Source: Planctomycetota bacterium (GTDB lineage: Bacteria > Planctomycetota > UBA11346). Taken from it: a stretch of 51,669 nt of DNA. This document shows, one piece after another, positions 153 through 37,992 of the stretch. The stretch lies in contig JBBQSO010000034.1 of NCBI GenBank assembly GCA_038213805.1, forward strand, positions 1 to 51,669, written 5' to 3'. The first letter of the stretch is position 1. Every line of letters begins with the position of its first letter. A program made the translations under genes and the position numbers. Below the pieces are notes generated by a model. The model was not told where the DNA came from and made no database searches. It worked only from the letters and a program-made list of their open reading frames with translations.

Positions 153-336
153 GGAGGTCCGGAAGTCCGGAAGTCTAGGAACTCGACGTCCGGACTCGCT
201 TTCACCGATCAGCTTGGGATCCGGGTGCTCAAAACGTGGAGGTCATCCGCGGGCACGGATGCCTGACGTTAAGATCACGGTCAGCAGCGGACTTCCGGAC
301 TTCCGGACCTCCGGACCTCCGGACCTCCGGACCTCC
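153..336. repeat. Inverted pair of octamer tandem arrays: (GGARGTCC)x3 at 153-176 and (GGACYTCC)x6 at 289-336, around a 112-nt spacer
   Basis: Read directly; the arms are reverse complements; the right arm ends 3 nt from the DUF1080 stop codon. Confidence 0.95.
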
Positions 337-339
337 GAA

Positions 340-1050
340 CTATTTCGCCGCCTGCGGCACCTTGATCTTGAGGTTGCGGAACCACACCTGGTTGCCGTGG
401 TCCTGCAGACAGATGCGGCCACTGGCGGCCATGCCGTAGTCGGGCATCGACTTGAACTTGCTGGCGTCGACCAGCGCCTGCCAGGCGGGGCTGTGCAGCT
501 CGTACTCGACGACCTTGGTGCCATTCAGCCAGTGCTCGACGTGGTTGCCGGTGACGATGAGTTCGGCTTCGTTCCACTCGCCCTGGGGATGCACCACCTC
601 CTTGCTGCAGGCGATCAGCGCGTAGGCCGCGCCCGCCGAGGTCTTGGGGTTGTGGCCGTCCGGGTGCTTGGCGTTGTCGAGCACCTGCATCTCGGGACCG
701 GATTCGTAGGGCGCGCCGTGGGCCTCGGTGACGTGGAACATCACGCCGCTGTTGCCGCCGGACGAGATCTTCCACTCCAGCTTGAGATCGAAGTCCTGGT
801 ACTCGTCGCGGGTGACGAGGTCGCCGCCGCCGTTGGGCCGCGCGAGGGCACCGTCCTCGGCCTTCCAGCCATCGGGCACCTCGGTCTTCTTGTATCCGCG
901 CCAGTGTTCCAGGCTCTTGCCGTCGAAGAGCAGCGACCAGCCCGCTTTGACCTCGTCCGGGGTCAGGGTGTTGAGGGCGGGCTCGTCCGCGGCCCGCAGC
1001 GCCATGGCGCCGGTGCAGAGGACGAGGAAGACTGCGGAGAAGACGCGCAT
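340..1050 (-). CDS. Secreted DUF1080 (3-keto-disaccharide hydrolase family) protein
   Basis: Signal peptide; motifs GWSLLFDG, GNSGV, GPEMQVLD, GEWN, HWLNG, ICLQDHG, FRNLKIK. Confidence 0.9.
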   Translation of the reverse strand: MRVFSAVFLVLCTGAMALRAADEPALNTLTPDEVKAGWSLLFDGKSLEHWRGYKKTEVPDGWKAEDGALARPNGGGDLVTRDEYQDFDLKLEWKISSGGNSGVMFHVTEAHGAPYESGPEMQVLDNAKHPDGHNPKTSAGAAYALIACSKEVVHPQGEWNEAELIVTGNHVEHWLNGTKVVEYELHSPAWQALVDASKFKSMPDYGMAASGRICLQDHGNQVWFRNLKIKVPQAAK

Positions 1051-1258
1051 GAAAGGCTCCTTGGCGCCGCCGGAAAGGTGGCAGGCCAGAGCAGATACGG
1101 CCGGATGCGGAATGGTGACATCCCTGGTCCTGCGTGCACGGGCGGGTGTATCACCCCGGAGCGGTGCGCACGCACCAGGAAAGCCACTGGCGGCACCACG
1201 AGCGACCCAGGTCCGACCCCGCGCGTTCAGCCCATCGGCCCTTCCGCCCCCCCTCCCC

Positions 1259-2041
1259 TTATCCCTTCTTCTTGAACATCCACCGCCACAGCATCACCAC
1301 CGGATCATAGTAGCGGTCGGCGACGCGCTCCTTGAGCGGGATGATGGCGTTGTCGGTGATCTTGATGTGCTCGGGGCAGACCTCGGTGCAGCACTTGGTG
1401 ATGTTGCAGAAACCGATGCCGCCGGTGTGCTTCAGGAAGGGCTCGCGGTCGGCGGTGTCGACCGGGTGCATCTCGAGCGAGGCCGCGCGTACGAAGAAGC
1501 GGGGGCCCGAGAAAACGTCCTTCTTGTCATGGTCGCGGATGACGTGACAGGTGTCCTGGCAGAGGAAGCACTCGATGCACTTGCGGAACTCCTGCGAGCG
1601 TTCGACGTCGACCTGCTGCATGCGGAAGGTGCCGTCGGCGGCGACGCCCGCCGCACCGCGCTTGGCCGGCGTGAACGGGGTGATCTTCTTGTTCTGCTCG
1701 TAATTCCACGACACGTCGGTGACGAGATCCTTGATGCTCGGGAAGGACTTCATCGGCGTGACGGTGACGTCGCCATCGGGCAACGACTCCATGCGCGTCA
1801 GGCACATCAGGCGCGGCTTGCCGTTGACCTCGGCGGAGCACGAGCCGCATTTTCCGGCCTTGCAGTTCCAGCGGCAGGCCAGGTCCGGCGCCTGGGTCGC
1901 CTGGATCTGGTGGATGGCGTCCAGCACCACCATGCCCGGGCTGATCTCAGCGGTGAAGGACTTGAACTCGCCTGTGCCGCGCTCGCCGCGCCACACCTTG
2001 AAGGTGCGCGTGGCCGCTGCGGCGGTTCCGATGGAGCTCAT
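1259..2041 (-). CDS. sdhB: Succinate dehydrogenase/fumarate reductase iron-sulfur subunit
   Basis: WNCKAGKCGSC, CIECFLCQDTC and CNITKCCTEVCP Fe-S motifs; ATG at 2041 overlaps the sdhA stop. Confidence 0.93.
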   Translation of the reverse strand: MSSIGTAAAATRTFKVWRGERGTGEFKSFTAEISPGMVVLDAIHQIQATQAPDLACRWNCKAGKCGSCSAEVNGKPRLMCLTRMESLPDGDVTVTPMKSFPSIKDLVTDVSWNYEQNKKITPFTPAKRGAAGVAADGTFRMQQVDVERSQEFRKCIECFLCQDTCHVIRDHDKKDVFSGPRFFVRAASLEMHPVDTADREPFLKHTGGIGFCNITKCCTEVCPEHIKITDNAIIPLKERVADRYYDPVVMLWRWMFKKKG

Positions 2042-3855
2042 CAGCCGATCTCCTTGATCACGCCCTGCAGTTCGTCGGTGAGCGGCTTGATCGGCTCGCG
2101 CCGCAGCTGCATCGCCCCGTCGGCGGCCTTCTTGATGATCATGTTCACCTCGCCGAACTCCTTGGACTTCTCGGGGAAGTCGTCGCGGAACTGCGCGCCG
2201 CGGCTCTCCTTGCGCTCGATCGCGCAACGCGTCAGCGCCTCCGAGACGGTGAGCAGGTTGGAGAGGTCCATGCAGGTGTGCCAGCCGGGGTTGTACTCGC
2301 GATTGGCGGGCGCGGCGACCTTCAGCGCGCGTTCATTGTAGCCCTTGATCTTCTCGAGGGCGGTGAGCATCTCGTCCTCCTTGCGCACGATGCCAACCAG
2401 CGCCTGCATGCTCTTCTGCAGGTCCTGCTGGAGCTTGTAGGGGTTCTCGTCACCCTTGGGCGCATCCATGAAGTGCAGCGCCCAGTCCATGGACGCCTTG
2501 ACCTCGGCCTCGTCGATCCAGCCGGGCTGCTGCTGCTGCGCGTACTTGGCGGCGTACTCGCCGGCGCGCTTGCCGAACACCAGCAGGTCGGAGAGCGAGT
2601 TGCCGCCCAGGCGGTTGGCACCGTGCAGGCCGGCGGCGGCCTCGCCCGCGGCAAAGAGCCCGGGCACATTCGACATCTGCGTATCGCCGTCGACGCGGAT
2701 GCCACCCATGGTGTAGTGCGTGGTCGGGCCGACCTCCATCGCCTCGGTGGTGATGTCGATGCCGCCCAGCTCCATGAACTGGTGGTACATCGAGGGCAGC
2801 TTCTTCTTGATGTACTCGCGCGCGTTGGGGATGCGCTCCTTGATCCATGAGATGTCGAGGTAGACGCCGCCGTGCGGGCTGCCGCGGCCGGCCTTGACCT
2901 CGCGGTTGATGCAGCGCGCCACGTGGTCGCGGGTCAGCAACTCGGGCGGGCGCATCGCGTGCTTGTCGCCCTGGGTGTAGCGCCACCCCTCCTCGATGTC
3001 TTTGGCGGTCTGGTTGCGGTAGTTCTCGGGGATGTCATCGAACATGAAGCGCTTGCCGTCCTTGTTGCGCAGGACGCCGCCTTCGCCGCGCACGCCCTCC
3101 GTCACCAGGATGCCGCGCACCGACGGCGGCCACACCATGCCGGTCGGGTGGAACTGGATGAATTCCAGGTCGAGCAGCTCGGCGCCCGCGTGGTAGGCCA
3201 GCGAATAGCCGTCGCCGGTGTACTCCCACGAATTCGAGGTGATCTCGAACGCCTTGCCCAGGCCGCCGGTGGCGATGATCACCGCCTTGGCCTTGAACAG
3301 CACGAAACGGCCCTTCTCGCGGTAATACCCGAGCGCACCGACCACGCGCTCGCCATCCTTGAGCAGCTTGGTGATGCAGCACTCCATGTAGACGGCGACC
3401 TGCGACTTGTGGACGCTATGGTCCTGCAGGGTGCGGATGATCTCCAGGCCGGTGCGGTCGCCGACGTGGGCGAGGCGCGGATAGCGGTGGCCGCCGAAGT
3501 TGCGCTGCAGGATCTTGCCGTCCTTGGTGCGGTCGAAGACCGCGCCCCACTGTTCAAGCTCGCGGACGCGGTCGGGGGCCTCCTTGGCGTGCAGCTCGGC
3601 CATGCGCGAGTTGTTGACGTACTGCCCGCCGCGCATGGTGTCGGCGAAGTGCGTCTTCCAGCCGTCGCGATCATCGACGTTGCCGAGCGCGGCGGCGACG
3701 CCGCCCTCGGCCATCACGGTGTGCGCCTTGCCGAGCAGCGATTTGCACACCAGGCCCACCGAGCAGCCCGCGTCGGCGGCCTCGATTGCCGCGCGCATGC
3801 CCGCGCCGCCAGCGCCGATCACCAGCACGTCATGTTCGAAGGTCTGGATTTCCAT
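2041..3855 (-). CDS. sdhA: Succinate dehydrogenase/fumarate reductase flavoprotein subunit
   Basis: GAGGAG FAD motif, KAHTVMAEGG, QFHPTG, HYTMGG, HGANRLGGNSL, ESRGA. Confidence 0.95.
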   Translation of the reverse strand: MEIQTFEHDVLVIGAGGAGMRAAIEAADAGCSVGLVCKSLLGKAHTVMAEGGVAAALGNVDDRDGWKTHFADTMRGGQYVNNSRMAELHAKEAPDRVRELEQWGAVFDRTKDGKILQRNFGGHRYPRLAHVGDRTGLEIIRTLQDHSVHKSQVAVYMECCITKLLKDGERVVGALGYYREKGRFVLFKAKAVIIATGGLGKAFEITSNSWEYTGDGYSLAYHAGAELLDLEFIQFHPTGMVWPPSVRGILVTEGVRGEGGVLRNKDGKRFMFDDIPENYRNQTAKDIEEGWRYTQGDKHAMRPPELLTRDHVARCINREVKAGRGSPHGGVYLDISWIKERIPNAREYIKKKLPSMYHQFMELGGIDITTEAMEVGPTTHYTMGGIRVDGDTQMSNVPGLFAAGEAAAGLHGANRLGGNSLSDLLVFGKRAGEYAAKYAQQQQPGWIDEAEVKASMDWALHFMDAPKGDENPYKLQQDLQKSMQALVGIVRKEDEMLTALEKIKGYNERALKVAAPANREYNPGWHTCMDLSNLLTVSEALTRCAIERKESRGAQFRDDFPEKSKEFGEVNMIIKKAADGAMQLRREPIKPLTDELQGVIKEIG

Positions 3856-3906
3856 GGGGTCGATTCTTTGGCAGGGGTCGTGAAGGAGGCGAGGGCCAGC
3901 CGCGGC

Positions 3907-4812
3907 TCAGAAGAAGCGCACCTGCGGCCAGATGCCCATCGCCACCAGGCGCACGTAGATGTCGGCGAAGCCGACCATCACCAGCGAGGCCATCGCCCAC
4001 ACGGCGTGGTTGCGGTTGAGGAATGACACGAAGCTCCACGCCTTGAAGCGCACCGGGTTGCCGCAGCTGAAGCAGTCCTTCTTGCCGCCGACCAGGTGGC
4101 GCAGGCTGTGGCAGCCGAAGGTGTAGCCGGCGATCAGAAGCGGGTTGATGAGCAGGGTCAGCGACACCAGGCTCATGCCGAAGACGTGGTGGTGCGGCTC
4201 GAGCGGTCCGCTAGCGCTGAACGCCGGATTCGGCTGACCGTTGGCAAGGAAATGGTAATTGGCGAAGGCGCTGTTGTCGGCGTTGACCGGGAAGAAGTGC
4301 GCGAGGATGCCGTCGTAGAGCAGGACGAAGACGAAGATGATGGCGAGGTAGAGGAAGTAGCGGTGCAGGTTCCACAGGATTAGCGGCAGGCTGTTCTCGC
4401 CCCAGTAGGATTTGCGCGGCTCACCGACTGCGCAGGCGACAGGATCGAACCACAGCGAGCGGTAGTAAGCCTTGCGGTAGTAGTAGCAGGTCAGGCGGAA
4501 GCCGGCCGGCCCGCCGAGGATGAGCAACGCCGCCGAGAACGGCAGGATGCCGGTCGGCCACCACGACGGCGCGATGCCGAAGATGGCGTGCGGGCTGGTG
4601 CCCCACAGCTCCGGTGAGTAGAACGGCGACAGGTAGTTGGTGCCGGGTACCCAATAGTTCCCGCCAATGAAGGCGGCGATCGTCGAGTAGATGAGGAAGG
4701 CGAGCAGCAGCGAGCCGGTCGCCAGCGGACCGAGCCACCACTGGTCGGTGCGGAGGGTAGCACCAAAGCCGGATCCCTGGGGTGCTGCGACGGGCGACGA
4801 GATCTGGTTCAT
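3907..4812 (-). CDS. Sdh1-type membrane anchor subunit (Rv0249c-like)
   Basis: YLSPFYSP, FRLTCYYYRKAYYR, NLHRYF and TFGCHSLRH motifs; several TM helices; first gene of the sdh operon. Confidence 0.85.
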   Translation of the reverse strand: MNQISSPVAAPQGSGFGATLRTDQWWLGPLATGSLLLAFLIYSTIAAFIGGNYWVPGTNYLSPFYSPELWGTSPHAIFGIAPSWWPTGILPFSAALLILGGPAGFRLTCYYYRKAYYRSLWFDPVACAVGEPRKSYWGENSLPLILWNLHRYFLYLAIIFVFVLLYDGILAHFFPVNADNSAFANYHFLANGQPNPAFSASGPLEPHHHVFGMSLVSLTLLINPLLIAGYTFGCHSLRHLVGGKKDCFSCGNPVRFKAWSFVSFLNRNHAVWAMASLVMVGFADIYVRLVAMGIWPQVRFF

Positions 4813-10566: not shown

Positions 10567-10755
10567 ATGTTCGGACTTTCGATCTGCGACTATGATACGG
10601 GCGCCCGCATCAGGATAGCCACCCTCAAGGACATCGAGAACGCCATCACGGCGGCGCGCGAACGCAGCCAGCCGTATTTTACAGAAGAGGTCGAGCAGGA
10701 TGGCGTCACGGTGGTGCGTCGCTGTTCGCTGGAGGAAGATCCACCTTCCGCCTGA
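10567..10755 (+). CDS. Small hypothetical protein (62 aa)
   Basis: Plausible composition; convergent with motB; AT-rich stretch upstream. Confidence 0.5.
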   Translation: MFGLSICDYDTGARIRIATLKDIENAITAARERSQPYFTEEVEQDGVTVVRRCSLEEDPPSA

Positions 10756-10775
10756 ACGCCGACGCCCCTGTTCCC

Positions 10776-11546
10776 TCACTCCGGCTCGAACGGCACCAGG
10801 ATAACCACGCGGTTGTTGTCCAGACTCGACCCATTGCCCTTCGCCACCTGGGTGTCGCCCCGGCTGGAGATCTGTCGACACAGTTCCGCCGGGTAGCCGG
10901 AGGCGATCATCGCCTGGTTGACCGCGCGGGCCCGGGCGAATCCGATGTCCATCTTGCTGGTGCCACCGCTCGCCACCGGCGAGGTGTCGGTGTACCCGGT
11001 GATGCGCACCGGGCGGCGCGAGGTGAGCAGCGCCGCGGTCAGCGACTTGACCATGGACTTGCCGACGTCGGTCAGCTCGTTGTTGGCGCGCGCAAAGAAC
11101 ACCCCGCGCGAGTCCTCGCTGAGCTCGATCTGCAGGCCCTTGTCGGTGATGGTCGAGACCACGTTGTGTTGGCGGCCCTTGAACGGACCGTCGTTTTTGA
11201 TCTTGTCCTGCACCAAGCTGTTGAGCACCTTCGCCCATTTCAGGTCCAGGTACTTGGTGGTGAGATCGTTCTCCTCGACCTTCTCGGGCGGGGGCGGCGG
11301 GTGGCCATCCATCTGCATGACATTGCGGCTGGAGGCGAAGCTCTTGAGCGCCGCGCCGGGATCGTTGAAATAGGCGGCGATGCCGACTTTGGTCTGCGGA
11401 TCCAGACCGATGATCCACATCACCAGGAAGAACGCCATCATCGCCGTCACCAGATCGGCGTAGGCCAGCTTCCACGCGCCACCGTGATGGCCATGGCCGC
11501 CGTGCTTCTTCTTCTTGATGATGATCGGCTGGATTTCCTTGGCCAC
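10776..11546 (-). CDS. motB: Flagellar-type motor stator protein MotB
   Basis: KKK-HGGHGHHGGAWKLAYADLVTAMMAFFL plug/TM with conserved Asp; OmpA-like C-terminus (GYTD, ARARAV, NNRV); GGAGGAG RBS, GTG start. Confidence 0.9.
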   Translation of the reverse strand: MAKEIQPIIIKKKKHGGHGHHGGAWKLAYADLVTAMMAFFLVMWIIGLDPQTKVGIAAYFNDPGAALKSFASSRNVMQMDGHPPPPPEKVEENDLTTKYLDLKWAKVLNSLVQDKIKNDGPFKGRQHNVVSTITDKGLQIELSEDSRGVFFARANNELTDVGKSMVKSLTAALLTSRRPVRITGYTDTSPVASGGTSKMDIGFARARAVNQAMIASGYPAELCRQISSRGDTQVAKGNGSSLDNNRVVILVPFEPE

Positions 11547-11605: not shown

Positions 11606-11645
11606 CGACTTCCGGACTTCCGGACTTCCGGACTTCCGGACTTTC
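11606..11645. repeat. Solo octamer array (GGACTTCC)x5 between motA and motB
   Basis: Read directly; 2 nt from the motA stop. Confidence 0.95.
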
Positions 11646-12776: not shown

Positions 12777-12961
12777 GGTGTCAGGCGCCTGGCGCTAGCC
12801 GCTAGGCGCTAGGCGCTAGGCGCTCGTCTTGGGAAGCGGTCTTCTGGCGCATTAGCGAATTGCGCCTGATCCATAGATCGATCCGCTGTCAGCTGTCAGC
12901 TGTCAGCCATCAGCCATCAGCCATCAGCCATCAGCCATCAGCTATCAGCTATCGGCCATCT
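12777..12961. repeat. Heptamer arrays: degenerate (GGCGCTA)n at 12777-12825 and (GCTGTCA)x3-(GCCATCA)x5-(GCTATCR)x2-GCCATCT at 12885-12961
   Basis: Read directly; lies between the proS stop and the motA upstream region. Confidence 0.9.
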
Positions 12962-15055: not shown

Positions 15056-15742
15056 ATGACCAGCGATCCCCGGGCGGCCACGGAACTCCTGCTCATCCGC
15101 CATGGCGAAAGCACCGGCAACAGCGCCGGCCGCATGCAGGGTCAGGACGACACCGAGCTGTCGGCCCTGGGTCGCGACCAGGGCGCCCTGCTCGCCCAGC
15201 GTCTCGCCGGCCTGCGTGATCGGCCGACCCTGGTCTACAGCAGCGACCTGCGCCGCGCCCACGATACCGCCAAGCTGGTGGCCGCAGCGCTCGGCACTGT
15301 CGTGCACCTCGACCCGCGCCTGCGCGAACTCGACGTCGGCACCTGGGCGGGCATGGCGCGCGAAGAGATCGCCGCCATGGCGCCCGCCGACTGGCACAGC
15401 TGGGAGGAGCGCGATCCCGCGGTGCGCTATGGCGGCGCCGAATCCTTCACCGACCTGCAGCGCCGCGTGGTGCCAGCGATCGAGGAGATCGCCGAACGGC
15501 ATACCGGCGCACACCTCGTCGTCGTCACCCATGGCGTCGCCATCCGCACCTACCTGGCGCACGTGCTCGGCCTGAATCTGAGTGCGATGTGGCAGCTCGC
15601 CATCGCCAACACCGCACTGAACCGCATCCATCCCCACGTGGTCGGCGTCCCGGGCGCACCGCCGCGCATGGGACGGGTCGATGTGATCAACGATGCGACG
15701 CATCTGGAGCGAGCGACAAGTGGGGCGGCGGGGTTGGCGTGA
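15056..15742 (+). CDS. Histidine phosphatase (phosphoglycerate mutase) family protein
   Basis: RHGES, YSSDLRRA, LRELDVGTW, VTHG, IND..HL. Confidence 0.92.
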   Translation: MTSDPRAATELLLIRHGESTGNSAGRMQGQDDTELSALGRDQGALLAQRLAGLRDRPTLVYSSDLRRAHDTAKLVAAALGTVVHLDPRLRELDVGTWAGMAREEIAAMAPADWHSWEERDPAVRYGGAESFTDLQRRVVPAIEEIAERHTGAHLVVVTHGVAIRTYLAHVLGLNLSAMWQLAIANTALNRIHPHVVGVPGAPPRMGRVDVINDATHLERATSGAAGLA

Positions 15743-15750: not shown

Positions 15751-16073
15751 GCTGATGGCTGATGGCTGATGGCTGATGGCTGATGGCTGATGGCTGATGG
15801 CTGATGGCTGATGGCTGATGGCTGATGGCTGGCGGCCGACTGCAGACTGCAAATAGAACAAGGCACTGCAAAGCTCAGGAGAGAAGAGGACGCGCTGGAC
15901 GGGGCTGCCGCTAGCGGGTCGTCCTGGTGCTCCGGGGTGTTGGTCCGACTTTGCGGCATCACCTTCCCAGCGCTCCATCTCCTCCGCTTGCCTCCGCGTC
16001 TCCTATTCTATCGGCTGTCGGCTGTCGGCTGTCGGCTGTCGGCTGTCGGCTTTCAGCCATCAGCCATCAGCCA
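15751..16073. repeat. Inverted pair: (GCTGATG)x11 plus degenerate units at 15751-15848, and (TCGGCTG)x5-TCGGCTT-(TCAGCCA)x3 at 16011-16073
   Basis: Read directly; lies between two convergent stops (8 nt and 2 nt away). Confidence 0.95.
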
Positions 16074-16075
16074 TT

Positions 16076-17131
16076 CTACAGCCTCATCCTCCACCACCGC
16101 CACGCCCCCACCAGGAACAGTGCCACGATCACCACGACGCTGAGCACGGCGGCGTTGACGGTGCTGCTGACCAGCAGCCGCACGAGCAGGCCGTGGGCGA
16201 CGATCGGGATGAGGGCGTAGCCGAGTGATGAGATGATCAGCGTGGCGATGTTGCCGCGGCGGTCGAAGCGGATGAAGCCGGGCAGAGCGAAGAGCAGGCA
16301 GAGCGGCGCGAGCAGGGCGAAGGAGATGCGCAGGTTGATCTTGCCCCAGGCCTTGTTGGCGTGACTGGCGAGCAGCTCGCTGCTGGTCTTGTCATTATCC
16401 GACTTGAGCAGCACGGCGAGCTGATCCGGGTTTGGCATGAGCGTGATGCCGGCCTCTACGACCGTGCATTCATGGCGCCGATCGATCGTCGAACCGTGAA
16501 CCACGACCGCCTCGGCGAGGCGCCACGCGTCGTCGCGCCAGAACAGGCGCTCGGCGAGCAGCATGGTCGATTCGGTGCGCGCGCCCTCCGCACCGAACAC
16601 GCCGACTTGACGGTACTCGCCGGCATCGGGCCACGCCTGCATCACCGCCCAGAAATGATCGCCCTCCCGCCACCCGACCGAGCGGTCGCGATCCTCGTCC
16701 GCCTTCAGGCTGCCCACCATGCGCTGGCGGCTAAGCTCGGCCAACCGCGCGAGGCGCGGGTTGACCTGGTCCTTGAGCACGAACCCGAGCGCGCCGACGG
16801 CCACCGCCAACAGCAGCATGCCGGTGAATACCCGCCGCGGCGCGATGCCGGCCGCGGCGAGGGCGACCAGGGTGCCTTGGCGCAGCATCGGCGCGGCAGT
16901 GAGGACCCCGGCCACCGCGGTCGACAGCGGCAGCCAGATGGTCATGAACTCGGGGAAACGGTAAAGGTAGAACTCGAGCAGGAAGAGGCTGCGCCCATGG
17001 GCGATGGCGTTGATGTAATCCCCCATCTTGCCGATGAAATCACCGATGAAGATCAGGAATATGCCCAGCAGCAGGACCAGGGCCCAGCGCGTGAATGCGG
17101 CCTCGACGACATTGCGGTCGAGGATCTTCAC
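16076..17131 (-). CDS. lptG: LPS export ABC transporter permease LptG
   Basis: KILDR N-terminus, LVALAAAGI motif, 6-TM layout with periplasmic domain; GTGA overlap with lptF. Confidence 0.8.
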   Translation of the reverse strand: MKILDRNVVEAAFTRWALVLLLGIFLIFIGDFIGKMGDYINAIAHGRSLFLLEFYLYRFPEFMTIWLPLSTAVAGVLTAAPMLRQGTLVALAAAGIAPRRVFTGMLLLAVAVGALGFVLKDQVNPRLARLAELSRQRMVGSLKADEDRDRSVGWREGDHFWAVMQAWPDAGEYRQVGVFGAEGARTESTMLLAERLFWRDDAWRLAEAVVVHGSTIDRRHECTVVEAGITLMPNPDQLAVLLKSDNDKTSSELLASHANKAWGKINLRISFALLAPLCLLFALPGFIRFDRRGNIATLIISSLGYALIPIVAHGLLVRLLVSSTVNAAVLSVVVIVALFLVGAWRWWRMRL

Positions 17132-18237: not shown

Positions 18238-19139
18238 GCGGGCTGCACCGCGTCCACCAGCCGCGACGTGGTGACCGGAAAGGCGCGGCCGGGCAGGGCG
18301 GTGCGGCACCATGCGCGCAGCGGCAGCGTTCCGGCGAGACGCCGCGCGGCCTCGGCCATGGTGACAATGCCGCCGAATCCGGCGAGGCGCGGCAGCAGGC
18401 GCTCGAGCACTGGCAGGTAAGGGCCGCCCTCGACCTCGGCGTGCAGAGTGAGCACGGTCAGCGTGGTCGGCTGGCGCAGGCCGGCGAGCAGGGCGTCCGC
18501 CAGCGCCTGTTCGCCGTGCACGCCGCCGGCGAGCAGCTCCTCCAGGCAGGGGCCGGTGCCGGGCAGCTGCGGGATGCGCAGTTCGTGCCCGCGCACCGCC
18601 AGCCGGCAGGGCACGCCGCCGCGCAGGTCGCTGGCATACAGGAAGGGATAGCCGTCCTGGATGCGCAGGGACTCAGGCGTGGTCATCCACGAGGGTGCGC
18701 CGATGCCGGCCGGATCATGGCCGGTCAGGGTGCGGTAGGCGGCCAGCGAGCGGTCGTAGTGGGCGCGGATGCGCGCGGTCTTGAAGCGCGGCAGGTCGTC
18801 CTGCCAGCTGCGGTGGTCCCAGGCGTGGATGGCGGCCTCGTGACCCTCGGCCTCAAGCCGGCGCACCACCTCGGGAAATGCGGTGGCGATCGGCCGCGCC
18901 GGCAGCAGCGTGCCGGAGAGGATGGTCCGCCAGCCGTACAGCGACGGCGCGCCGGTGGTCAGCATCTTCTGCGCGAAGCGTGGCTTGCGCATCTGCAGGA
19001 TGGCGCGCCCGGAACGGTCCGGCCCCATCGACAGGAAGAACGTGCCCGGCACGCCGTGCCGCTTCAGGCAGTCGAGCAGGCACGGCACGCCGGTGCGCAT
19101 GCCGTCGTGGGTGTCGATGTCGATTTTCAGGGACAACAC
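18234..19139 (-). CDS. arnD: Undecaprenyl-P-L-Ara4FN deformylase (polysaccharide deacetylase fold)
   Basis: LKIDIDT..G...GVP, FFLSMGPDRSGRA, HAWDH..WQD, YASD.RG, TLHAEVEG; arn context. Confidence 0.88.
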   Translation of the reverse strand: MLSLKIDIDTHDGMRTGVPCLLDCLKRHGVPGTFFLSMGPDRSGRAILQMRKPRFAQKMLTTGAPSLYGWRTILSGTLLPARPIATAFPEVVRRLEAEGHEAAIHAWDHRSWQDDLPRFKTARIRAHYDRSLAAYRTLTGHDPAGIGAPSWMTTPESLRIQDGYPFLYASDLRGGVPCRLAVRGHELRIPQLPGTGPCLEELLAGGVHGEQALADALLAGLRQPTTLTVLTLHAEVEGGPYLPVLERLLPRLAGFGGIVTMAEAARRLAGTLPLRAWCRTALPGRAFPVTTSRLVDAVQPA

Positions 19140-19166: not shown

Positions 19167-19324
19167 GGAGTCCGGAAGTCCGGAAGTCCGGAAGTCCGGA
19201 AGTCTCGTCGGAAGTGGTTGCGCACGTGCGCCCACGATCCCTCGATTGACGGCTCGCGACCAGGAATATGGCCCGACCGAGTCCAACAGGACTTCCGTAC
19301 TTCCGGATTTCCGGACTTCCGGAC
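19167..19324. repeat. Inverted pair: (GGAAGTCC)n at 19167-19205 and (GGACTTCC)n at 19289-19324, around an 83-nt spacer inside the arn operon
   Basis: Read directly. Confidence 0.95.
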
Positions 19325-19344
19325 GGTAGCAATCATGGAGGCAA

Positions 19345-22377: not shown

Positions 22378-23360
22378 GGGTTTCCTGAAGCACGCTGCGG
22401 TGGGAGGGAAGGAGTTACGGAAGTGGCGGTGGGCGCAGCGCGGAGCAACGCTCCGGGCGCGAGCAGGGCTGGGCGGCCATCGGTCTCGGCCACGGCGAGC
22501 AGTTCGAGCACGCCCGCGCCGCAGGCCACCGCCCACGCTCCCGCCGCGCCGGGCAGCACCGTGCCGGGCGCGGCAGCGACGCCCGAATCACTGCGCACCG
22601 CGCTGCGCTGCACCAGCAGCTTGCGATCCCTGCACCACGTGAAGGCCGAGGGCCAGGGCGGCGCGACCGCGCGCACCAGGTCGTGGACGCGGCGCGCGGG
22701 CCAGGCCCAGTCGATCAGACCGTCGGCCGGCGTGCGCCCGCGCACCACCGTGGCGTGGGCGTGGTCCTGGACGCGCAGCGTGGCGCGCCCGGCGAACAGC
22801 GCGGGCAGCGCGCCGTCGAGCAGCGCATCGGCCTGCGCCAGCAGCTGCGCGGTCAGACCGAAGGCGTCGACGTCGGGATGCACGTCGACCGCGACCTGGG
22901 CGGCGATATCGCCGGCGTCGGCCTGGCGCACCATGCGGTGCAGGGTCAGGCCGCTGGTCTTCTCACCGTTGACCAGCTGCCAGTTCACCGGCGCGCGCCC
23001 GCGGTAGGCGGGCAGCAGCGAGCCGTGCAGGTTCCACCCCCCCTGCGCAGCTAGGGCCAGGACGCGCTCCGGGAGCATGTGCCTGAAGTAGAAGCTGAAG
23101 ATGAAGTCCGGCGCCAGGGCGCGCAGGCGCGCGTACGCACTGCCGTCACCGTCGCCCGTGAGGTCGGCGTCGAGCACCACCGGCACGCCGTGCGCGCGCG
23201 CCAGCTCTGCGGCCGACGGCCACCAGCAGGACTCCCCAGGCTGATCGGCGTGGCTGAGCAGCAGCGCGACTTCGGCGCCACTGCGCAGCAGCGCGGCGAG
23301 CCCGGCGTGGCCGAAGGCCCCGTAGGCGCACACCACCACGCGCGGCGCCCGCGCGGTCAC
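22374..23360 (-). CDS. arnA: UDP-L-Ara4N formyltransferase (stand-alone ArnA N-terminal domain)
   Basis: PDFIFSFYFR, NLHGSLLPAYRGRAPVNW, TLHRM..ADAGDI, RTPADG.IDW. Confidence 0.92.
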   Translation of the reverse strand: MTARAPRVVVCAYGAFGHAGLAALLRSGAEVALLLSHADQPGESCWWPSAAELARAHGVPVVLDADLTGDGDGSAYARLRALAPDFIFSFYFRHMLPERVLALAAQGGWNLHGSLLPAYRGRAPVNWQLVNGEKTSGLTLHRMVRQADAGDIAAQVAVDVHPDVDAFGLTAQLLAQADALLDGALPALFAGRATLRVQDHAHATVVRGRTPADGLIDWAWPARRVHDLVRAVAPPWPSAFTWCRDRKLLVQRSAVRSDSGVAAAPGTVLPGAAGAWAVACGAGVLELLAVAETDGRPALLAPGALLRAAPTATSVTPSLPPQRASGNP

Positions 23361-25946: not shown

Positions 25947-26056
25947 GGCACGCCTTCCGGCCCGCCCGCCGGCACATGCCGAGGGCTGGGTGAGCGCGGG
26001 ATTCTGGCTGCAAACGGCCGTTGACCAGTGATTTCGGCCTGCCGGGGGCAGGCCGG

Positions 26057-26232
26057 GCTGATGGCTGATGGCTGATGGCTGATGGCCAGCCGAACCAGCT
26101 CCGTGCCCCCGGGTTACGCTACCTCATCCGAGGACTTGCAACCCTCATCACCAGATGCCGAGAGAAGGCAGGTCAGTTCAGGAGACGCGCCGCAGGCGCG
26201 TCTCCATCAGCCATCAGCCATCAGCCATCAGC
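26057..26232. repeat. Inverted pair: (GCTGATG)x4 at 26057-26084 and (CATCAGC)x4 at 26205-26232, around a 120-nt spacer with internal hairpin GGAGACGCGCC-GCA-GGCGCGTCTCC
   Basis: Read directly; perfect 28-bp complementary arms; 3 nt from the sigma-factor stop. Confidence 0.95.
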
Positions 26233-26235
26233 CTC

Positions 26236-31759: not shown

Positions 31760-31765
31760 ATGCAG

Positions 31766-31807
31766 GCTGATGGCTGATGGCTGATGGCTGATGGCTGATG
31801 GCTGATG
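31766..31807. repeat. Solo heptamer array (GCTGATG)x6
   Basis: Read directly; 6 nt after the cupin stop. Confidence 0.95.
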
Positions 31808-31853
31808 GAGAGCGCGCGCTTGATCCCCCAGGGCGTTCGCCACAACTCCGTCC

Positions 31854-33003: not shown

Positions 33004-33159
33004 CGGGGTGCGGAGTGCGGAGTGCGGGGTGCGGAGTGCGGAAGGAACTTCGTGGAATCTCCTGGGGATGCGCTGCGCATGAGCTCCAGGACATGGTGAT
33101 TGGCATGGAGCACCGGCTACATCCGTACGCCGCACTCCGCACTCCGCACTCCGCACTCC
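33004..33159. repeat. Inverted pair: (CGGRGTG)x5 at 33004-33042 and (CCGCACT)x4+ at 33122-33159, around a 79-nt spacer between divergent purN and argH
   Basis: Read directly; the spacer holds TCCTGG..ATGCGC-T-GCGCAT..CCAGGA. Confidence 0.95.
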
Positions 33160-33245
33160 AAGCAGCCGATGTCTCCCCGCCCTTGCGCACCGCGCCATCC
33201 CCTCCACCGTCACTGATCCCCGGCCGCGCCGGGCAAGGAGCGATC

Positions 33246-34640
33246 ATGGCAGCTGCGCACCCGGCCGACCCCCGGCCCACCGCGACCACCCGGCCGATCT
33301 GGGCCAAGGGCGGCGACGAGACCAACCGCCTGGTCCACGAATTCACCGTCGGCGACGACTATCTCTATGACCGCGAACTGGCGCCGTTCGACCTGCTCGG
33401 CTCGCTCGCGCATGCGCGCATGCTCGGCCACGTCGGGCTGCTCTCGGCGCAGGACACCACCGCCCTGGTGGGCGGCCTGCAGGCCCTGCACCGCGAGCAC
33501 CTCGCCGGCGCGTGGACGGTCGAAGTCGCCGACGAGGATGTGCACAGCAAGGTCGAGGCCCTGCTCGAGCAACGCGTCGGCGAGCCGGCCAGACGCCTGC
33601 ACACCGGGCGCAGCCGCAACGACCAGGTACTGACCGATGTGCGGTTGTGGCAGAAGCACACCCTGGCCCTGCTCGCCGACGAGACTGCGGCGACGGCGGC
33701 GGCGCTGCTTGAGCGCGCCCAGACCCACGAGTTCCACCCGCTGCCCGGCTACACCCACTTGCAGCGCGCCATGCCGTCGAGTGTCGGCATGTTCTTCGCC
33801 GCGCACGCCCAGGCGCTGCTCGACGACCTCATCCTGCTGGATGCGGCCTACCAGCTCGCCGATGCCTGTCCGCTCGGCTCTGGCGCGAGCTACGGCGTCG
33901 GCCTGCCGCTGGACCGCGCATACGCAGCGACGCTGCTCGGCTTCGCGCGCAGCGGCGGGGTGGCCATGGCCGATGCCAACGGCCGTGGCAAGGTCGAGAC
34001 CGCCTGCATCGACGCCGCCGGCGCGGTGGTCGGCGACCTCAGCCGGCTCGCCGCCGACCTGTTGTTCTTCACCACCGGCGAGGCCGGCTTCTTCACCATC
34101 GGCAAGGGTTTCACAACCGGTTCGAGCATCATGCCGCAGAAGAAGAACCTCGACCTGTTCGAGCTGCTGCGCGGCCGCGCCGCGCGCTTCCTCGGCCTGC
34201 GCACCGGCCTGGCCGCGATCACCCTTGGCCTGCCCTCCGGCTACAGCCGCGACCTGCAGGACACCAAGGCGCTGTGCCTGGACGGACTGCGCCTGGCGCG
34301 CCAGGGGCTGGCGGTCGCCGCCGCCGCGGTGCCGACCCTGGAGCCGGTGCGCGCGCGCATCGAGGCCGCCCTGACCCCCGACCTGTACGCCACCGACGAG
34401 GCGTACCGCCTGGTGCGCGAGCAGGGCATGGCCTTCCGCGACGCCTACCGCCAGGTCGGCCGCAACCTCGACCAGGTGCCGGTCCCCGACCACGAGCGCA
34501 CCGTGCGCGATCGCACCCACGCTGGCAGCACCGGCAATCTCGGCCTGCCCGCGCTCGCCGCGCGCGGCACGCGCGAGCGCGCACGCTGGACGGCGCGCGC
34601 GACGGAGCTGACGCGGATATGGGAGACCTTGCTGGGGTAG
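33246..34640 (+). CDS. argH: Argininosuccinate lyase
   Basis: EDVH, LHTGRSRNDQ, PGYTHLQ, TGSSIMPQKKN, GYSRDLQ; AAGGAG RBS. Confidence 0.95.
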   Translation: MAAAHPADPRPTATTRPIWAKGGDETNRLVHEFTVGDDYLYDRELAPFDLLGSLAHARMLGHVGLLSAQDTTALVGGLQALHREHLAGAWTVEVADEDVHSKVEALLEQRVGEPARRLHTGRSRNDQVLTDVRLWQKHTLALLADETAATAAALLERAQTHEFHPLPGYTHLQRAMPSSVGMFFAAHAQALLDDLILLDAAYQLADACPLGSGASYGVGLPLDRAYAATLLGFARSGGVAMADANGRGKVETACIDAAGAVVGDLSRLAADLLFFTTGEAGFFTIGKGFTTGSSIMPQKKNLDLFELLRGRAARFLGLRTGLAAITLGLPSGYSRDLQDTKALCLDGLRLARQGLAVAAAAVPTLEPVRARIEAALTPDLYATDEAYRLVREQGMAFRDAYRQVGRNLDQVPVPDHERTVRDRTHAGSTGNLGLPALAARGTRERARWTARATELTRIWETLLG

Positions 34641-34786
34641 AAGGGCCGCAGGTCCGGCCGTCTCATCGGATGGACGTCCACCGCCGCACGGTGACGCAGC
34701 GAGGCAAAACGCCTTCACGAGCTGCAGGACTGGACACCAAACCTCGGCCCAACACGACTTCCGGACTTCCGGACTTCCGGACTTCC
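34640..34786. repeat. Octamer element: degenerate left arm at 34640-34663 and (GGACTTCC)x4 right arm at 34755-34786
   Basis: Read directly; lies between convergent argH and methyltransferase stops. Confidence 0.85.
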
Positions 34787-34798
34787 TGACCCAAGCCG

Positions 34799-35522: not shown

Positions 35523-37163
35523 ATGCCGGACCCGACCGTCCCCGAACTCCCCTTGCTCAGCGACGGCACCCTCCCGCCGGTCGCCCTGCTGCTGCGCTGG
35601 CTCGGCCAGGCGCGACCGGCCCCCGCGGCCCGACTGGATGCGCTGCCACCCGGCAACGGTTCGCTGCCCGACCTGCTGCGCCTGGGCGGCATCGCCCAGC
35701 TCGTGCACGGGGGTCTCGAGGCCTTCCGCTGGGAAGGCTGCGCCGGGGCGCGCGTGCTGGTCGACGGTGATGGGGACGAGGACGCGCCACTGCACCACGG
35801 CCACCTGCCGGCCGATGCGACGTGGGGGGACGAGGCCTCGGCCATCCACGGCTTAATCGACCTGGCCCGCCTCGAGGACGCCAGCGCGGCGCTCGCCGAC
35901 GGCAGCGCCGCGCCGCGCGCAGGTGCCGCATGGGACCACATCCTGGCCGCTGCCGGCATGGTCCGCACGCCGCCCATCCCGCCGCTCGCCGGCCATGGCC
36001 TGGCCGACGCGGGCCAACTCGGCGCCTGGAACCCCCTGCCCTTCGCGCGCCGCCAGGTGGTCTCGCTACCGATGCCGCCGGGCACCGCGCCGTGGGGGCT
36101 GCGCGACCAGCGTGGCGCGCGCCACCCCGTACAGGTGGTGGAAGGCCCGCGTGGACAGGAGCTGCTGGTCGAGCTCGCGCTCGGCGCGCTCGAATGCCGG
36201 CGCTTCGCGCCCGACGACGATCCGGTGGCCGGCGCGAACTGGGAGGTCTCGCGCACCGTGCTCGACAATGGCCGCGTGCGCGCCGAGCTTGATCCGCTCG
36301 GCCAGATCGTGCGGCTGTGCTGGGACGGGCGCTTTGCACGCTGGGCCGGCCCGGCGCCCCAGGCACTGGTCGACGGCCTGCCGCTGTCCGGCGGCAGCAG
36401 CATCACCGTGCTCGAGGATGGCCCGGTGCGCGCCCGCCTCGCGGTCAGCCGCAGCGGGCCGCAGGGCACCCTGCACCTGACCTATACCCTGCACGCGCAC
36501 GAGGACGTGCTACGCGTGGCGGTGTCGTGGGACGGGGCCGGCGAACTCGTCCTCGACCATCCGACCCCCTACCGTGACGGCGAACTGCGCGTCGCCGGCG
36601 AACTGGCGCCGTGGAGCATGGTTCAGGCGGCGCGCGCGGGTGACGAACCCGCGGTGGTCCAACCCGGCGTGCGCTGGGCGACCCTGGGCGAGGGTCACGG
36701 CGAGGCCTTCGATGGTCTGGCCCTGCTCGGGGCGCGGCCGCTGAGCGTCTCGGCCCAGGCGGGGCATCTGCGCCTGCATGTCGGCGGCGCCCTGGCCTAT
36801 GCGCTGGCGCCGGCGCGGCGCCTGCCGGGCAGCCTTGGTCTCGGGCAGCTCGCGCTCGCCATCGGCGTGCCCGGGCGCGTCTACAGCGGCGCCACTGATC
36901 TGCCCAGTGCGCTGCGCCTGGAACACCGCGGCGGGGTGACACCGTGGTGGGTTGGGCGCCCGGCGGACTGGCGCGGCGAGGTAGTGCTCGGCGACCAGTC
37001 CGGCGCGGCCGGCCGCTGCGTCCTGTTCGCCCCGGGCCTGACCGAGGCGTGGCGTGTGGACGCGGGCGGCAGCCCGCTGCAGCGCCTGCCCGCGACGCCC
37101 GAGGCCGACGGCGCCGAACTCGACCTCGCCGGGCACGAGCTGGCGATCGTGCGCTGGCGCTAG
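35523..37163 (+). CDS. Protein resembling the C-terminal regions of GH38 alpha-mannosidases, without a recognisable catalytic domain
   Basis: WNPLPFARRQVV, VLDNGRVRAELD..G.I, VLEDGPVRARL segments. Confidence 0.55.
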   Translation: MPDPTVPELPLLSDGTLPPVALLLRWLGQARPAPAARLDALPPGNGSLPDLLRLGGIAQLVHGGLEAFRWEGCAGARVLVDGDGDEDAPLHHGHLPADATWGDEASAIHGLIDLARLEDASAALADGSAAPRAGAAWDHILAAAGMVRTPPIPPLAGHGLADAGQLGAWNPLPFARRQVVSLPMPPGTAPWGLRDQRGARHPVQVVEGPRGQELLVELALGALECRRFAPDDDPVAGANWEVSRTVLDNGRVRAELDPLGQIVRLCWDGRFARWAGPAPQALVDGLPLSGGSSITVLEDGPVRARLAVSRSGPQGTLHLTYTLHAHEDVLRVAVSWDGAGELVLDHPTPYRDGELRVAGELAPWSMVQAARAGDEPAVVQPGVRWATLGEGHGEAFDGLALLGARPLSVSAQAGHLRLHVGGALAYALAPARRLPGSLGLGQLALAIGVPGRVYSGATDLPSALRLEHRGGVTPWWVGRPADWRGEVVLGDQSGAAGRCVLFAPGLTEAWRVDAGGSPLQRLPATPEADGAELDLAGHELAIVRWR

Positions 37164-37250
37164 CGCCAGTGGCCTTCACCAGATCCGCAGCGCCCCCCCC
37201 AGCATCACCAGCGCAGAACACCTCCGCCCACTCCCGACTTCGGACCAGCC

Positions 37251-37940
37251 ATGCCCACCCCCGCCGTGCTTCTCGACATCGAAGGCACCACCACCTCCAT
37301 TAGCTTCGTCACCGACGTGCTCTTCCCCTTCGCCGCCAATGCGATCCCGGAATTTCTCAAGGCACACGCCGACGATGAGGAGATCAACGACGCGCGCGTC
37401 CAGGTCCTGCAGGACGCCACGCCTGAGGAACGTCTCCTGACCGGTGACGCCGGCGTGATCGCCGTGGTGCGCCGGCAGATGGCCGGGGACGTCAAGGCCA
37501 CCGGACTCAAGCTGCTCCAGGGCCTGGTGTGGCGGCACGGCTACCAGACCGGGCGCATCACCGGCCACGTCTACGCGGATGTGCCGAAGGCGCTGGCCGC
37601 GTGGCATGCGGCCGGGCGCAGCGCCGCCATCTACAGCTCGGGCAGCCGCCTCGCGCAGCAGCTGCTCTTCCGCCACAGCGACGCCGGCGACCTCACGCCG
37701 CTGCTGTCCGGCTACTACGACACCACTTCGGGCCCCAAACGCGAGTCGGCCAGCTACGCCGCGATCGCGCGCGCCTGGGGCAAGGCGCCAGCGGACATCA
37801 CCTTTTGCAGCGACATCCCGGCCGAAGCCGACGCGGCGCACGCCGCCGGCATGCATGCGGTGGTGTTGATGCGGCCGGGCAATGCGCCGTTGCCCGCGAA
37901 CTTGGCGCATCCGGTGCATGCGGATCTGACGCGCATTTGA
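37251..37940 (+). CDS. mtnC: Acireductone synthase (enolase-phosphatase E1)
   Basis: LLDIEGTTTSISFV.DVLFP, K.TGLK.LQG, IYSSGS..AQ.LLF, DT..GPK.E..SY, F.SD. Confidence 0.93.
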   Translation: MPTPAVLLDIEGTTTSISFVTDVLFPFAANAIPEFLKAHADDEEINDARVQVLQDATPEERLLTGDAGVIAVVRRQMAGDVKATGLKLLQGLVWRHGYQTGRITGHVYADVPKALAAWHAAGRSAAIYSSGSRLAQQLLFRHSDAGDLTPLLSGYYDTTSGPKRESASYAAIARAWGKAPADITFCSDIPAEADAAHAAGMHAVVLMRPGNAPLPANLAHPVHADLTRI

Positions 37941-37946
37941 GCACGT

Positions 37947-37992
37947 GACGGCGGACACACGGGGACTCCTGGTCCGCCGTCCGCCGTCCGCC
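37947..37992. repeat. Small inverted element GACGGCGGAC ... (GTCCGCC)x3 between convergent stops
   Basis: Read directly; 6 nt from each stop. Confidence 0.8.

Follow-up and report, generated by a model that had tools for sequence, protein, structure and literature searches.

Ten intergenic sites in a stretch of 51,669 nucleotides of a Planctomycetota contig (JBBQSO010000034.1; the whole stretch is called the window here) carry tandem arrays of short units. We read them, with a probability of roughly 0.55, as foldback cassettes without cargo, akin in type to 23S intervening sequences, that act as RNA stems. Judged from sequence, the best reading is that the window elements share a design class with the arms that enclose PF05635/TIGR02436 genes, and that all the window copies are empty. 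Such an element would consist of two inverted arms of tandem 7–8 nt units around a site-specific loop. In the transcript, the arms would pair into a long perfect stem, a putative RNase III substrate as in 23S intervening sequences (IVS), so that the element could be tolerated, or cut out, just behind stop codons and within operons.

Arrays were located with TRF and with an exact-copy scan (at least three perfect copies per array) over the whole window. The scan finds 15 perfect arrays at the ten sites, 11 with period 7 and four with period 8, and none with periods 4–6 or 9–12. Tandem arrays of 7–9 nt units occur far beyond chance in the intergenic DNA, as in the class of paired short-unit arrays; first-order Markov simulations (n = 100) gave none at periods 7–12. 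Every array lies in the non-coding share, ~14% of the window on an approximate gene map. One unit family is GGAAGTCC, with the variant GGAGGTCC (sites A, B, E, and I); a second is GGCTGAT, with the variants GGCTGAC, CAGCTGA, and GGCTGTC (sites C, D, F, and G); the others are CGGAGTG, AGGCGCT, and GGCGGAC. At least five unrelated units are thus present inside one 38-kb stretch. An initial annotation had listed 7–8 bp arrays of at least five families at about ten intergenic sites, and TRF recovers them at the positions given there. The independent assemblies of two relatives (L030 and L025) have arrays at the same gene junctions, which rules out an assembly artefact.

Inverted pairs of the same unit occur at five sites in solid form (A, D, E, F, and H) and at one site in marginal form (J), and the predicted stems of inverted pairs measure 23–38 bp. 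Pairs, and the two unlike arrays of site C, are given without a strand. Site A (153..337) has arms at 153–175 (2.9 copies) and 288–337 (6.2 copies) around a spacer of 112 nt, and the stop of a DUF1080 gene (340, minus strand) lies 2 nt beyond the end of its right arm. The left arm is made of GGAGGTCC and GGAAGTCC units, and the variants are mirrored, with GGAAGTCC inner and GGAGGTCC outer in both arms; 23 nt are 100% complementary (MFE −106 kcal/mol, z −6.5). Site D (15751..16074) lies between convergent genes (histidine phosphatase stop at 15742, lptG stop at 16076). Its left arm, 15751–15831, is GCTGATG × 11.6, and on its right side a direct array of a variant unit (16011–16051, TCGGCTG × 5.9) is followed by the inverted partner (16053–16074, TCAGCCA × 3.1). 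Site E (19167..19326), an inverted GGAAGTCC pair (4.5 + 4.5 copies, spacer 84 nt), stands 20 nt past the stop of an ArnT-like gene with a deacetylase gene downstream (MFE −103 kcal/mol, z −8.5). Site F (26056..26233), an inverted GGCTGAT pair (4.4 + 4.3 copies, spacer 117 nt), begins 2 nt past a sigma-factor stop and is followed by a DegT-type aminotransferase gene; 30 nt are 100% complementary (MFE −122.8 kcal/mol, z −8.3). Site H (33004..33159) is an inverted CGGAGTG pair (5.6 + 5.4 copies, spacer 79 nt; MFE −117.7 kcal/mol, z −9.3). It had been placed behind a stop codon in the initial annotation, but it lies between the divergent starts of a formyltransferase (minus) and a lyase (plus), with no stop adjoining. 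At sites A, E, F, and H (z −6.5 to −9.3), none of 200 shuffles folds as well. Site J (37947..37992) is a small hairpin in which one GGCGGAC (37950–37956) faces (GTCCGCC) × 3 (37972–37992), with ten paired positions; the stops of two convergent genes (HAD hydrolase and flavin reductase) are each 6 nt away.

The remaining sites, about four of the ten, are single arms or unlike arrays with which no stem is possible. Site B (11607..11643, minus strand) is a single GGAAGTCC array of 4.6 copies, with the motA stop 4 nt before and the motB start 60 nt after. Site C (12783..12960), located between the stop of proS and the start of motA, comprises two unlike arrays, AGGCGCT × 6 at 12783–12824 and blocks of TCAGCCA/TCAGCTG (8–11 copies) at 12881–12960. 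Site G (31765..31808, plus strand) is (GGCTGAT) × 6.3, with a cupin stop 5 nt before and a DUF3817 start 45 nt after. Site I (34756..34790, minus strand) is (GGAAGTCC) × 4.4, 8 nt past a methyltransferase stop and between convergent genes. Eight two-armed sites had originally been proposed, seven of them inverted. The five solid pairs stand, while 37947–37992 opposes one unit to three and the left arm claimed in 34640–34786 holds at most one degenerate unit, the sole real array there being 34756–34790; for 12777–12961, the view that it is not a same-unit pair is borne out.

The bias toward inverted pairing extends to the window's lineage and to other proS-bearing genomes: among 57 arrays in 78 sequences (the window plus 77 loci from these sources), same-unit pairs are inverted in 12 cases and direct in none. 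Polarity, with the G-rich arm on the left, had been described as invariant. No pair in the window departs from this, but among ten polar or neutral pairs of relatives, two are C-first (L027 and site D of L025). Once the left arm is G-rich, a G-rich arm behind the stop on the sense strand is automatic, because an inverted repeat reads alike on both strands. Shine–Dalgarno content was tried as a cause of the G-first polarity and rejected as unsupported, GGAG, GAGG, or AGGA being present in seven of 15 cassette 5′ units versus 5.15 expected from letter-shuffled units. As a possible trace of selection on the RNA, mismatches compatible with G·U pairing show a weak bias to the sense strand (23 vs. 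11 antisense), in a set whose rows are non-independent (L078, L085, and L087 are close kin), and number 19 vs. 9 in cassettes alone; the ten mismatches of site D, which are unpolarised, repeat a single one.

Nine of the ten sites adjoin the 3′ end of a gene, 1–26 nt behind the stop (2–25 nt in the initial annotation). At the five co-directional sites, the distance to the stop is 2–26 nt vs. 43–70 nt to the next start. Several elements lie within likely operons (motA-motB), and the neighboring genes are housekeeping genes (proS, lptG, motA, and neighbors of sdh).

In the relatives L025 and L030, the junctions of sites B, C, D, and E all contain a hairpin or an array, with the units changed. In L025, hairpins occur at all four comparable junctions with different units, although ProS of the relatives is 93% identical: an AGACCCT-type pair is found at the site D junction, and a perfect 26-bp inverted repeat without tandem units replaces the arrays between proS and motA. 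The CGGAGTG family, present at site H in the window, occurs at site E in L025. In L030, site C is made of the two families found in the window, but their variant blocks differ, and the orthologue of site B has both arms; the window copy of site B appears to have lost its spacer and 3′ arm. Arms differ from each other in copy number, as do the window and L030, and variant units come in blocks. The variant blocks, the unequal copy numbers, and a lost arm show fast change in place, attributable to slippage.

Spacers and flanks are specific to each site. In spacer alignments, only the orthologous pair of site C and its L030 counterpart stands out (z 12.6, all other pairs z ≤ 2.7). The 30-nt flanks of arms show no greater similarity within families than between them (inner, 5.44 vs. 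5.34; outer, 5.24 vs. 4.97). Since spacers and flanks of same-family elements are unrelated in the window, simple copying of a single non-autonomous element does not account for them, and a MITE, which requires a conserved core, conserved ends, and target-site duplications, was rejected. The spacer and flank comparison of the window sites gives no sign of whole-element copying in this genome.

The cargo form is seen in the relative L017, where arms enclose a four-helix-bundle gene behind the proS stop; the arms adjoin the ORF without a gap, 6 nt past that stop, and the protein matches PF05635 (4e-32) and TIGR02436 (1e-30). Proteins of this type, annotated as 23S rRNA intervening-sequence protein, are kin of the Avd protein of diversity-generating retroelements and are among the commonest small proteins of unknown role; we know of no catalytic activity for them. 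A search of plasmids for homologues returned 29 records, of which 16 were sampled for taxon spread before the sequence was inspected (five phyla; 11 of the 16 cyanobacterial; L078, L085, and L087 close relatives). Inverted short-unit arrays of the same family flank the gene on both sides in 14 of the 16 (13 by TRF, L089 by eye), always with the G-rich arm first (14/14). In L083, the cassette sits inside the LSU (23S) rRNA, with heptamer-like arms. In a 50-kb stretch of Nostoc, arrays of this layout flank only the four-helix-bundle gene, one of 48 annotated CDS. The unit tracks the protein lineage: proteins 77–85% identical share TCAGGAG and, across genera, proteins 79% identical share ACTTCAA/CTTCTGC. 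Empty elements also occur near cassettes. On Nostoc pNe_5, they lie beside cassettes with which they share the unit AGGGAGT; in Gemmatirosa, three copies of one small empty element have an identical order of unit variants and GAAC…GTTC ends, and their units differ from those of the local cassette.

In the window, no four-helix-bundle gene is found among the 45 ORFs scanned, as initially reported, and tblastn with the L017 protein (E up to 10) over the window and the 77 loci matches only L017 itself, with no gene remnant in the window or its spacers. The initial annotation had mentioned similar arms around 23S-IVP-like genes in some genomes; L017, the 14 plasmid genes, the insertion in 23S rRNA, and the XCC0516 locus of Xanthomonas (whose product, a relative of the L017 protein, is a solved four-helix bundle, PDB 2gsc) all bear this out, which makes cargo-less versions the best reading of the window elements. 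The 23S IVS is described as a small PF05635 ORF in an inverted repeat cut by RNase III and has been called a selfish element (Warrier et al. 2016, PMC4990558). The window elements resemble it in the inverted repeat able to form a long stem, and L083 is such an insertion. They differ in lying between protein genes and having no ORF; the window contains no rRNA, and hence no 23S helix 25 or 45. Tandem-unit arms are not mentioned in the sections of that article consulted (PMC4990558).

Empty copies may arise when recombination between directly repeated arrays cleanly removes the gene, as suggested by the layout [arm][arm′] ORF [arm′] in L079 and L081. Unit families shared among sites would mean that elements, or arms alone, are copied; among the window genes there is no candidate for a trans-acting enzyme making or copying the arms. 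A distant analogy is offered by the foldback (FB) transposons of Drosophila, with long inverted arms of short tandem units, unequal arms, and a variable loop sometimes containing genes; these are, however, eukaryotic, far larger, and provided with a known transposase partner.

The main alternative, which we hold to be unlikely but worth weighing, is that host hairpins have grown in place as strong stems without U-tracts, serving as terminators or 3′-end protectors, with nothing mobile. Slippage would lengthen one arm, hairpin-templated correction or selection for pairing would lengthen the other, and four-helix-bundle genes would merely settle in such hairpins. The maintenance of hairpins at the four L025 junctions while units change, the 26-bp repeat at proS-motA, the site-specific spacers and flanks, and the prevalence of gene 3′ ends all agree with it, as do the variant blocks and unequal copy numbers that slippage predicts, and site J looks nascent. 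However, independent slippage cannot produce the recurrence of GGAAGTCC at A, B, E, and I and of GGCTGAT at C, D, F, and G within 50 kb when 16,384 heptamers are possible. One unit family recurs at four to five separate sites, so slippage alone fails, in line with the doubt about slippage alone in the initial annotation. Nor would hairpins grown in place explain CGGAGTG at H in the window and at E in L025, units that follow protein lineages across genera, the identical variant order of the Gemmatirosa copies, elements inside motA-motB and between divergent starts, or single arms without a stem. No T-run follows any arm, the longest in the 15 nt past the arms being three (14 flanks, seven sites), and the class of intrinsic terminators was rejected; in high-GC bacteria, stems without U-tracts may still terminate. 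Rfam 15 gives no match in the window at the gathering score.

A more active role of the protein is a speculative and rather doubtful possibility. Avd-like four-helix-bundle proteins and arrays would then form a RAYT/REPIN-like system that writes, copies, or maintains arms at new sites behind genes. Each protein lineage would recognise its own 7–9 nt unit and, whether acting by itself or together with a polymerase or a reverse transcriptase, leave numerous empty hairpins in each genome. REPs and REPINs are numerous non-autonomous intergenic hairpins behind stops, often inverted doublets, formed of imperfect palindromes of 20–40 bp with GTAG/CGTC heads, and RAYT is an IS200-like transposase encoded by a single-copy gene flanked by its own repeats. 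The window elements are likewise short intergenic hairpins behind stop codons. In contrast, their arms are tandem unit arrays and the partner would be a four-helix bundle instead of an IS200-like transposase. Membership in the REP/REPIN-RAYT class itself was rejected: the arms have no GTAG/CGTC heads, and no Y1 transposase domain is present among the 45 window ORFs scanned.

Published accounts from Xanthomonas and Geobacter already describe paired heptamer arrays a short distance past upstream ORFs. As described in the sections cited here, the paired GGGAATC heptamer arrays of Xanthomonas campestris/citri are 89–93% intergenic, with the upstream ORF 28 nt away on average and the downstream ORF 160 nt; 70–75 convergent inverted pairs occur among ~185 arrays, the rest including singles, and the status as pair or single is constant between species while lengths vary (Rehm et al. 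2015, PMC4692102). The window arrays share with them the tandem heptamers, the intergenic location nearer the upstream ORF, and the mixture of inverted pairs and singles. They differ in phylum and in comprising at least five families without GGG, whereas one GGG-tract family, read as a quadruplex former, is present there. Array #15 lies 6 nt past bccP and overlaps the start of XCC0516 (PMC4692102, supplement file 2, row 27); in these sections, the authors draw no link between the arrays and this four-helix-bundle gene. In Geobacter metallireducens, "global regulator binding sites" fall into three to four classes of 3–5 tandem 7–9 nt units, mostly in opposite-strand pairs at variable distance in intergenic regions, e.g., between proB and proA (Aklujkar et al. 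2009, PMC2700814). These were taken by the authors for sites of an IHF/HU-type protein, with no link to a hairpin or cargo in the part cited. The likeness to the window, in several short-unit classes per genome and opposite-strand pairs, is one of description, not of sequence. Tandem heptamer arrays, the commonest long-unit class, are mostly intergenic and patchy across phyla (Mrazek et al. 2007, summarised in PMC4679880). Cyanobacterial STRR heptamers and long simple-sequence repeats are described as direct arrays; inverted pairing, polarity, and cargo do not enter the account in the portion of that summary used (PMC4679880). Our literature search, with the early STRR and Leptospira IVS papers outside its scope, returned no link between S23p/four-helix-bundle genes and flanking tandem arrays.

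These published readings of an identical architecture suggest sites acting at the DNA level, either iteron-like for a nucleoid or global regulator (proposed in G. metallireducens and Nostoc) or G-quadruplexes (Xanthomonas), which we judge improbable for the window. Multimeric DNA binders do use tandem short units, and the unit co-varies with the four-helix-bundle protein next to it, as would suit a protein that has a binding site of its own. But at least five unrelated units, and junction units that differ in relatives with such similar ProS, do not suit a single regulator or a conserved regulon; nine of the ten sites are found behind genes and not at promoters, and the strict inverted pairing (12 vs. 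0) indicates a stem. The quadruplex reading does not carry over because the units lack a run of three G: they reach GG at most, and the class, which calls for a minimum of four runs of three or more G, was rejected. Contingency loci, whose repeat length switches neighboring genes on and off, are very improbable: close relatives do differ in copy number and long simple-sequence repeats of 5–11 nt units are reported in many bacteria (PMC4679880, in the part cited), but the arrays lie downstream of housekeeping stops instead of in promoters, 5′ leaders, or reading frames, so this class too was rejected, and inverted pairing has no part in phase variation.

On the reading as empty cassettes, the arrays are the arms of the cassette of a four-helix-bundle gene, with near-constant G-first polarity and many empty copies per genome. 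Bacterial intergenic arrays of short units have been reported repeatedly over ~35 years, with quadruplexes, regulator sites, and translation signals as guessed roles; we know of no accepted mechanism for any of them. The window, its relatives, and the plasmid sample from five phyla join this array literature to the four-helix-bundle gene. In practice, short-read assemblies break at these perfect repeats, and start codons near them are miscalled (L010, XCC0516). The questions raised are testable: whether the protein binds its own unit, whether RNase III cuts the stems in operons, and how arms of the same unit are placed. If the RAYT/REPIN-like reading were true, the STRR heptamers, the Xanthomonas and Geobacter arrays, the 23S IVS, and the planctomycete family would be one widespread and undescribed type of mobile cassette.

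The ten intergenic array sites of the window (A to J) form a real and strongly non-random family and are likely empty members of a class of cassettes in which inverted arms of a short repeated unit enclose a four-helix-bundle gene. The relatives of its ProS assign the window to an uncultured lineage of Planctomycetota. Tandem Repeats Finder (TRF) gives 7- or 8-nt arrays at all coordinates of the initial annotation, and each site was also read directly. With a threshold of at least three exact copies, a scan of the window (69% G+C) gives 11 arrays at period 7 and four at period 8, with none at periods 4–6 and 9–12; in 100 simulated windows (first-order Markov), no array arises at periods 7–12. 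Pfam annotation of 45 candidate ORFs bears out the gene names first proposed and places every array within the non-coding ~14% of the window. Rfam gives no match to the window. The region from 38 to 51.7 kb is without any array; a very long ORF (>1,760 codons, 46390–51669) with a glucoamylase-like domain at its C-terminal end continues there beyond the window, and a CHASE3 hybrid histidine kinase gene is divergent from it. Between the GT2 glycosyltransferase and epimerase genes, 820 nt (22537–23356) have a counterpart of equal length in the relative L025 (1893–2713); this stretch has a Pfam match on neither strand and strong predicted folding (−153 kcal/mol for 260 nt).

Solid inverted pairs with both arms from a single unit family are present at five sites: A (153–337), D (15751–16074), E (19167–19326), F (26056–26233), and H (33004–33159). 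Seven had been counted initially; at site J (37947–37992), a single unit lies opposite three. Site C (12783–12960) combines two unlike arrays, and single arms are present at B (11607–11643), G (31765–31808), and I (34756–34790), where reading the site reveals no array in the left arm described earlier. Folded as RNA, sites A, E, F, and H form stems of 23–38 bp (−103 to −123 kcal/mol, z-scores −6.5 to −9.3), and none of 200 shuffles folds equally well. The proposed position of the arms just after stop codons holds at nine of the ten sites (gap of 1–26 nt) and fails at site H, which separates the divergent starts of the formyltransferase and lyase genes. At the five co-directional junctions, the element is 2–26 nt from the upstream stop, whereas 43–70 nt separate it from the next start. 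No T-run was found 3′ of the arms at the window sites. On the minus strand, a perfect 11-bp GC hairpin (GGAGACGCGCC...GGCGCGTCTCC, 26088–26112) adjoins the 5′ arm of site F, just inside it, and a comparable AGAGCGCGCGC is directly behind the lone arm of site G.

Because an inverted repeat is the same on either strand, to place the G-rich arm behind the stop in sense orientation is only to restate that this arm is on the left; the genuine asymmetry is between G-first and C-first pairs. A TRF run (period 7–8, at least 2.8 copies) on all 77 proS loci together with the window (~1.05 Mb) gives 57 arrays, with 12 inverted versus no direct pairs of the same unit within 600 nt. Among these 12, eight have G-first polarity, three show no G/C bias, and L027 has the one C-first pair; a second C-first pair, in L025, is below threshold and was spotted by eye. 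Shine–Dalgarno-like words, tested as a source of the G-first polarity, are not enriched over base composition; our guess is that a C-rich arm placed first would load Rho. A wobble-pair bias is weak. Only two sequences, L030 and the window with its 16 arrays in 51.7 kb, are array-dense; arrays are sparser in L025, L017, L040, L010, and L027 and missing from most of the 77 loci. The longest pair observed, CGATGTC x7.7/GACATCG x10.7, occurs in L040 (54% G+C; 3702–3919), with the 3′ arm reaching the following gene's stop codon at zero gap. In L010 (5402–5560), all in-frame start candidates of the downstream CobU-like gene are in the loop of the hairpin or farther upstream; translation from such a start would turn the 3′ arm into an N-terminus rich in Thr, His, and Pro. 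A small GC hairpin also separates this 5′ arm from the upstream stop.

The closest ProS relatives, L030 (96% identity, partial) and L025 (93%; the others are at most 79%), are syntenic with the window. Between motA and motB, the window has one GGAAGTCC arm, L030 a full GGAAGTCC pair, and L025 a CGCCAAGG pair within a longer unique inverted repeat. Between proS and motA, the two unlike families of the window recur in L030 with different variant blocks, and L025 has a perfect 26-bp inverted repeat without arrays. At the other two junctions, not covered in L030, the window has GGCTGAT (phosphatase/lptG) and a GGAAGTCC pair (arnT–deacetylase), and L025 has, respectively, C-first AGACCCT-type units and a lone GCACTCC array (the family of window site H). 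Thus, hairpins persist at the same junctions with fast in-place change: units, copy numbers, and even entire arms turn over, and unit families shift between sites as well. In L025, DegT, GT2, arnT, epimerase, GDH, and proS each match window proteins as two to four pieces in differing frames, a pattern suggestive of long-read assembly frameshifts and not of pseudogenes. Among the window sites, only the arrays are common: spacers are unrelated to each other, and flank similarity between arms of one family does not exceed that between arms of different families. The main rival explanation, in-place growth of host hairpins through slippage, accounts for the persistence of the hairpins and for the site-specific loops, but not for the same unit turning up at four or five sites.

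Arms in L017 (GTCCGGG x4.4, CGGACCC x4.9) start 6 nt past the proS stop and immediately adjoin an ORF of 131 codons that matches PF05635 (4e-32) and TIGR02436, “four helix bundle protein” (1e-30); XCC0516 (2gsc), from Xanthomonas campestris, is its relative of known structure. Searched with the L017 protein, the window and the 77 loci contain no further copy or remnant, in agreement with the initial annotation, which had noted the lack of such a gene and mentioned similar arms around four-helix-bundle genes in some genomes. That link is borne out by L017 and by plasmids: 29 plasmid records match the L017 protein, and among 16 picked for taxon spread (cyanobacteria, Riemerella, Gemmatirosa, Azospirillum), TRF arrays flank the gene on both sides in 15, and inverted copies of one 7–8-nt family do so in 14 (13 by TRF, L089 by eye), all 14 G-first. 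In L081, direct arrays surround the gene with an inverted partner farther upstream, and in L088 unlike arrays occur beside an insertion sequence. The gene of L083 is inside a large-subunit rRNA gene and is therefore a true intervening sequence. Other copies occupy tight operon gaps: cas6–cas4 (twice), cas10–cmr3, and between ribonucleotide reductase genes. The CRISPR-Cas operons holding armed cassettes are on three cyanobacterial plasmids, L081 and L089 (different genera, identical cas6/cas4 junction) and L082 (cas10–cmr3). Proteins 77%–85% identical have one unit in common, and two proteins from Nostoc and Stanieria (79% identical) have another; this tie between unit and protein lineage is likewise left unexplained by slippage in place.

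Empty elements accompany the cassettes on plasmids. In 50 kb of a Nostoc plasmid, the cassette's unit occurs again in one single array and one empty inverted pair, with an inner flank common to both; the four-helix-bundle gene is the only one of 48 annotated CDSs flanked this way. A 50-kb stretch of a Gemmatirosa plasmid (L094) has small empty hairpins at 2403–2475, 10600–10675, 11186–11261, and 18974–19042, with three 9-nt units per arm and bounds GAAC...GTTC. Three of them have the same variant order, differing loops, and a unit unlike that of the local cassette; they look like copies of one foldback element of ~75 bp.

Such arrays have precedents. According to Rehm et al. (2015; PMC4692102), X. 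campestris has 186 GGGAATC arrays, 89%–93% intergenic, whose gap to the upstream ORF averages 28 nt and which include 70 convergent pairs; they are read there as quadruplex formers. Array #15 of the supplementary table there is 6 nt past bccP and across the start of XCC0516, a link on which the authors do not comment. Several classes of paired 7–9-nt tandem sites in Geobacter metallireducens are interpreted as regulator sites (Aklujkar et al. 2009; PMC2700814), and heptamer arrays in Nostoc as regulators with an unknown partner (bioRxiv 2022.06.06.494920). Heptamer arrays are described as the commonest long-unit repeats in bacteria (Mrazek 2007, as cited in PMC4679880). RNase III cuts out intervening sequences carrying an S23p ORF (PMC4990558), and PF05635 is similar to Avd (PMC10053308). 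Among the papers covered by our literature search, none ties short-unit arrays to a four-helix-bundle gene. Readings as binding sites, quadruplexes, or phase-variation loci are a poor fit to the many unrelated units, to the lack of GGG in any unit of the window, and to arrays behind housekeeping genes.

If the window sites are empty cassettes, the transcript would form a long, perfectly paired stem cleavable by RNase III, so that the element would be tolerated just past a stop and within operons. Recombination between direct arrays, such as those of L079 and L081, may produce the empties without leaving a remnant of the gene, and some further process would carry same-unit arms to several sites. 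The window family extends a published and so far unexplained kind of array to a new phylum and to several unit families.
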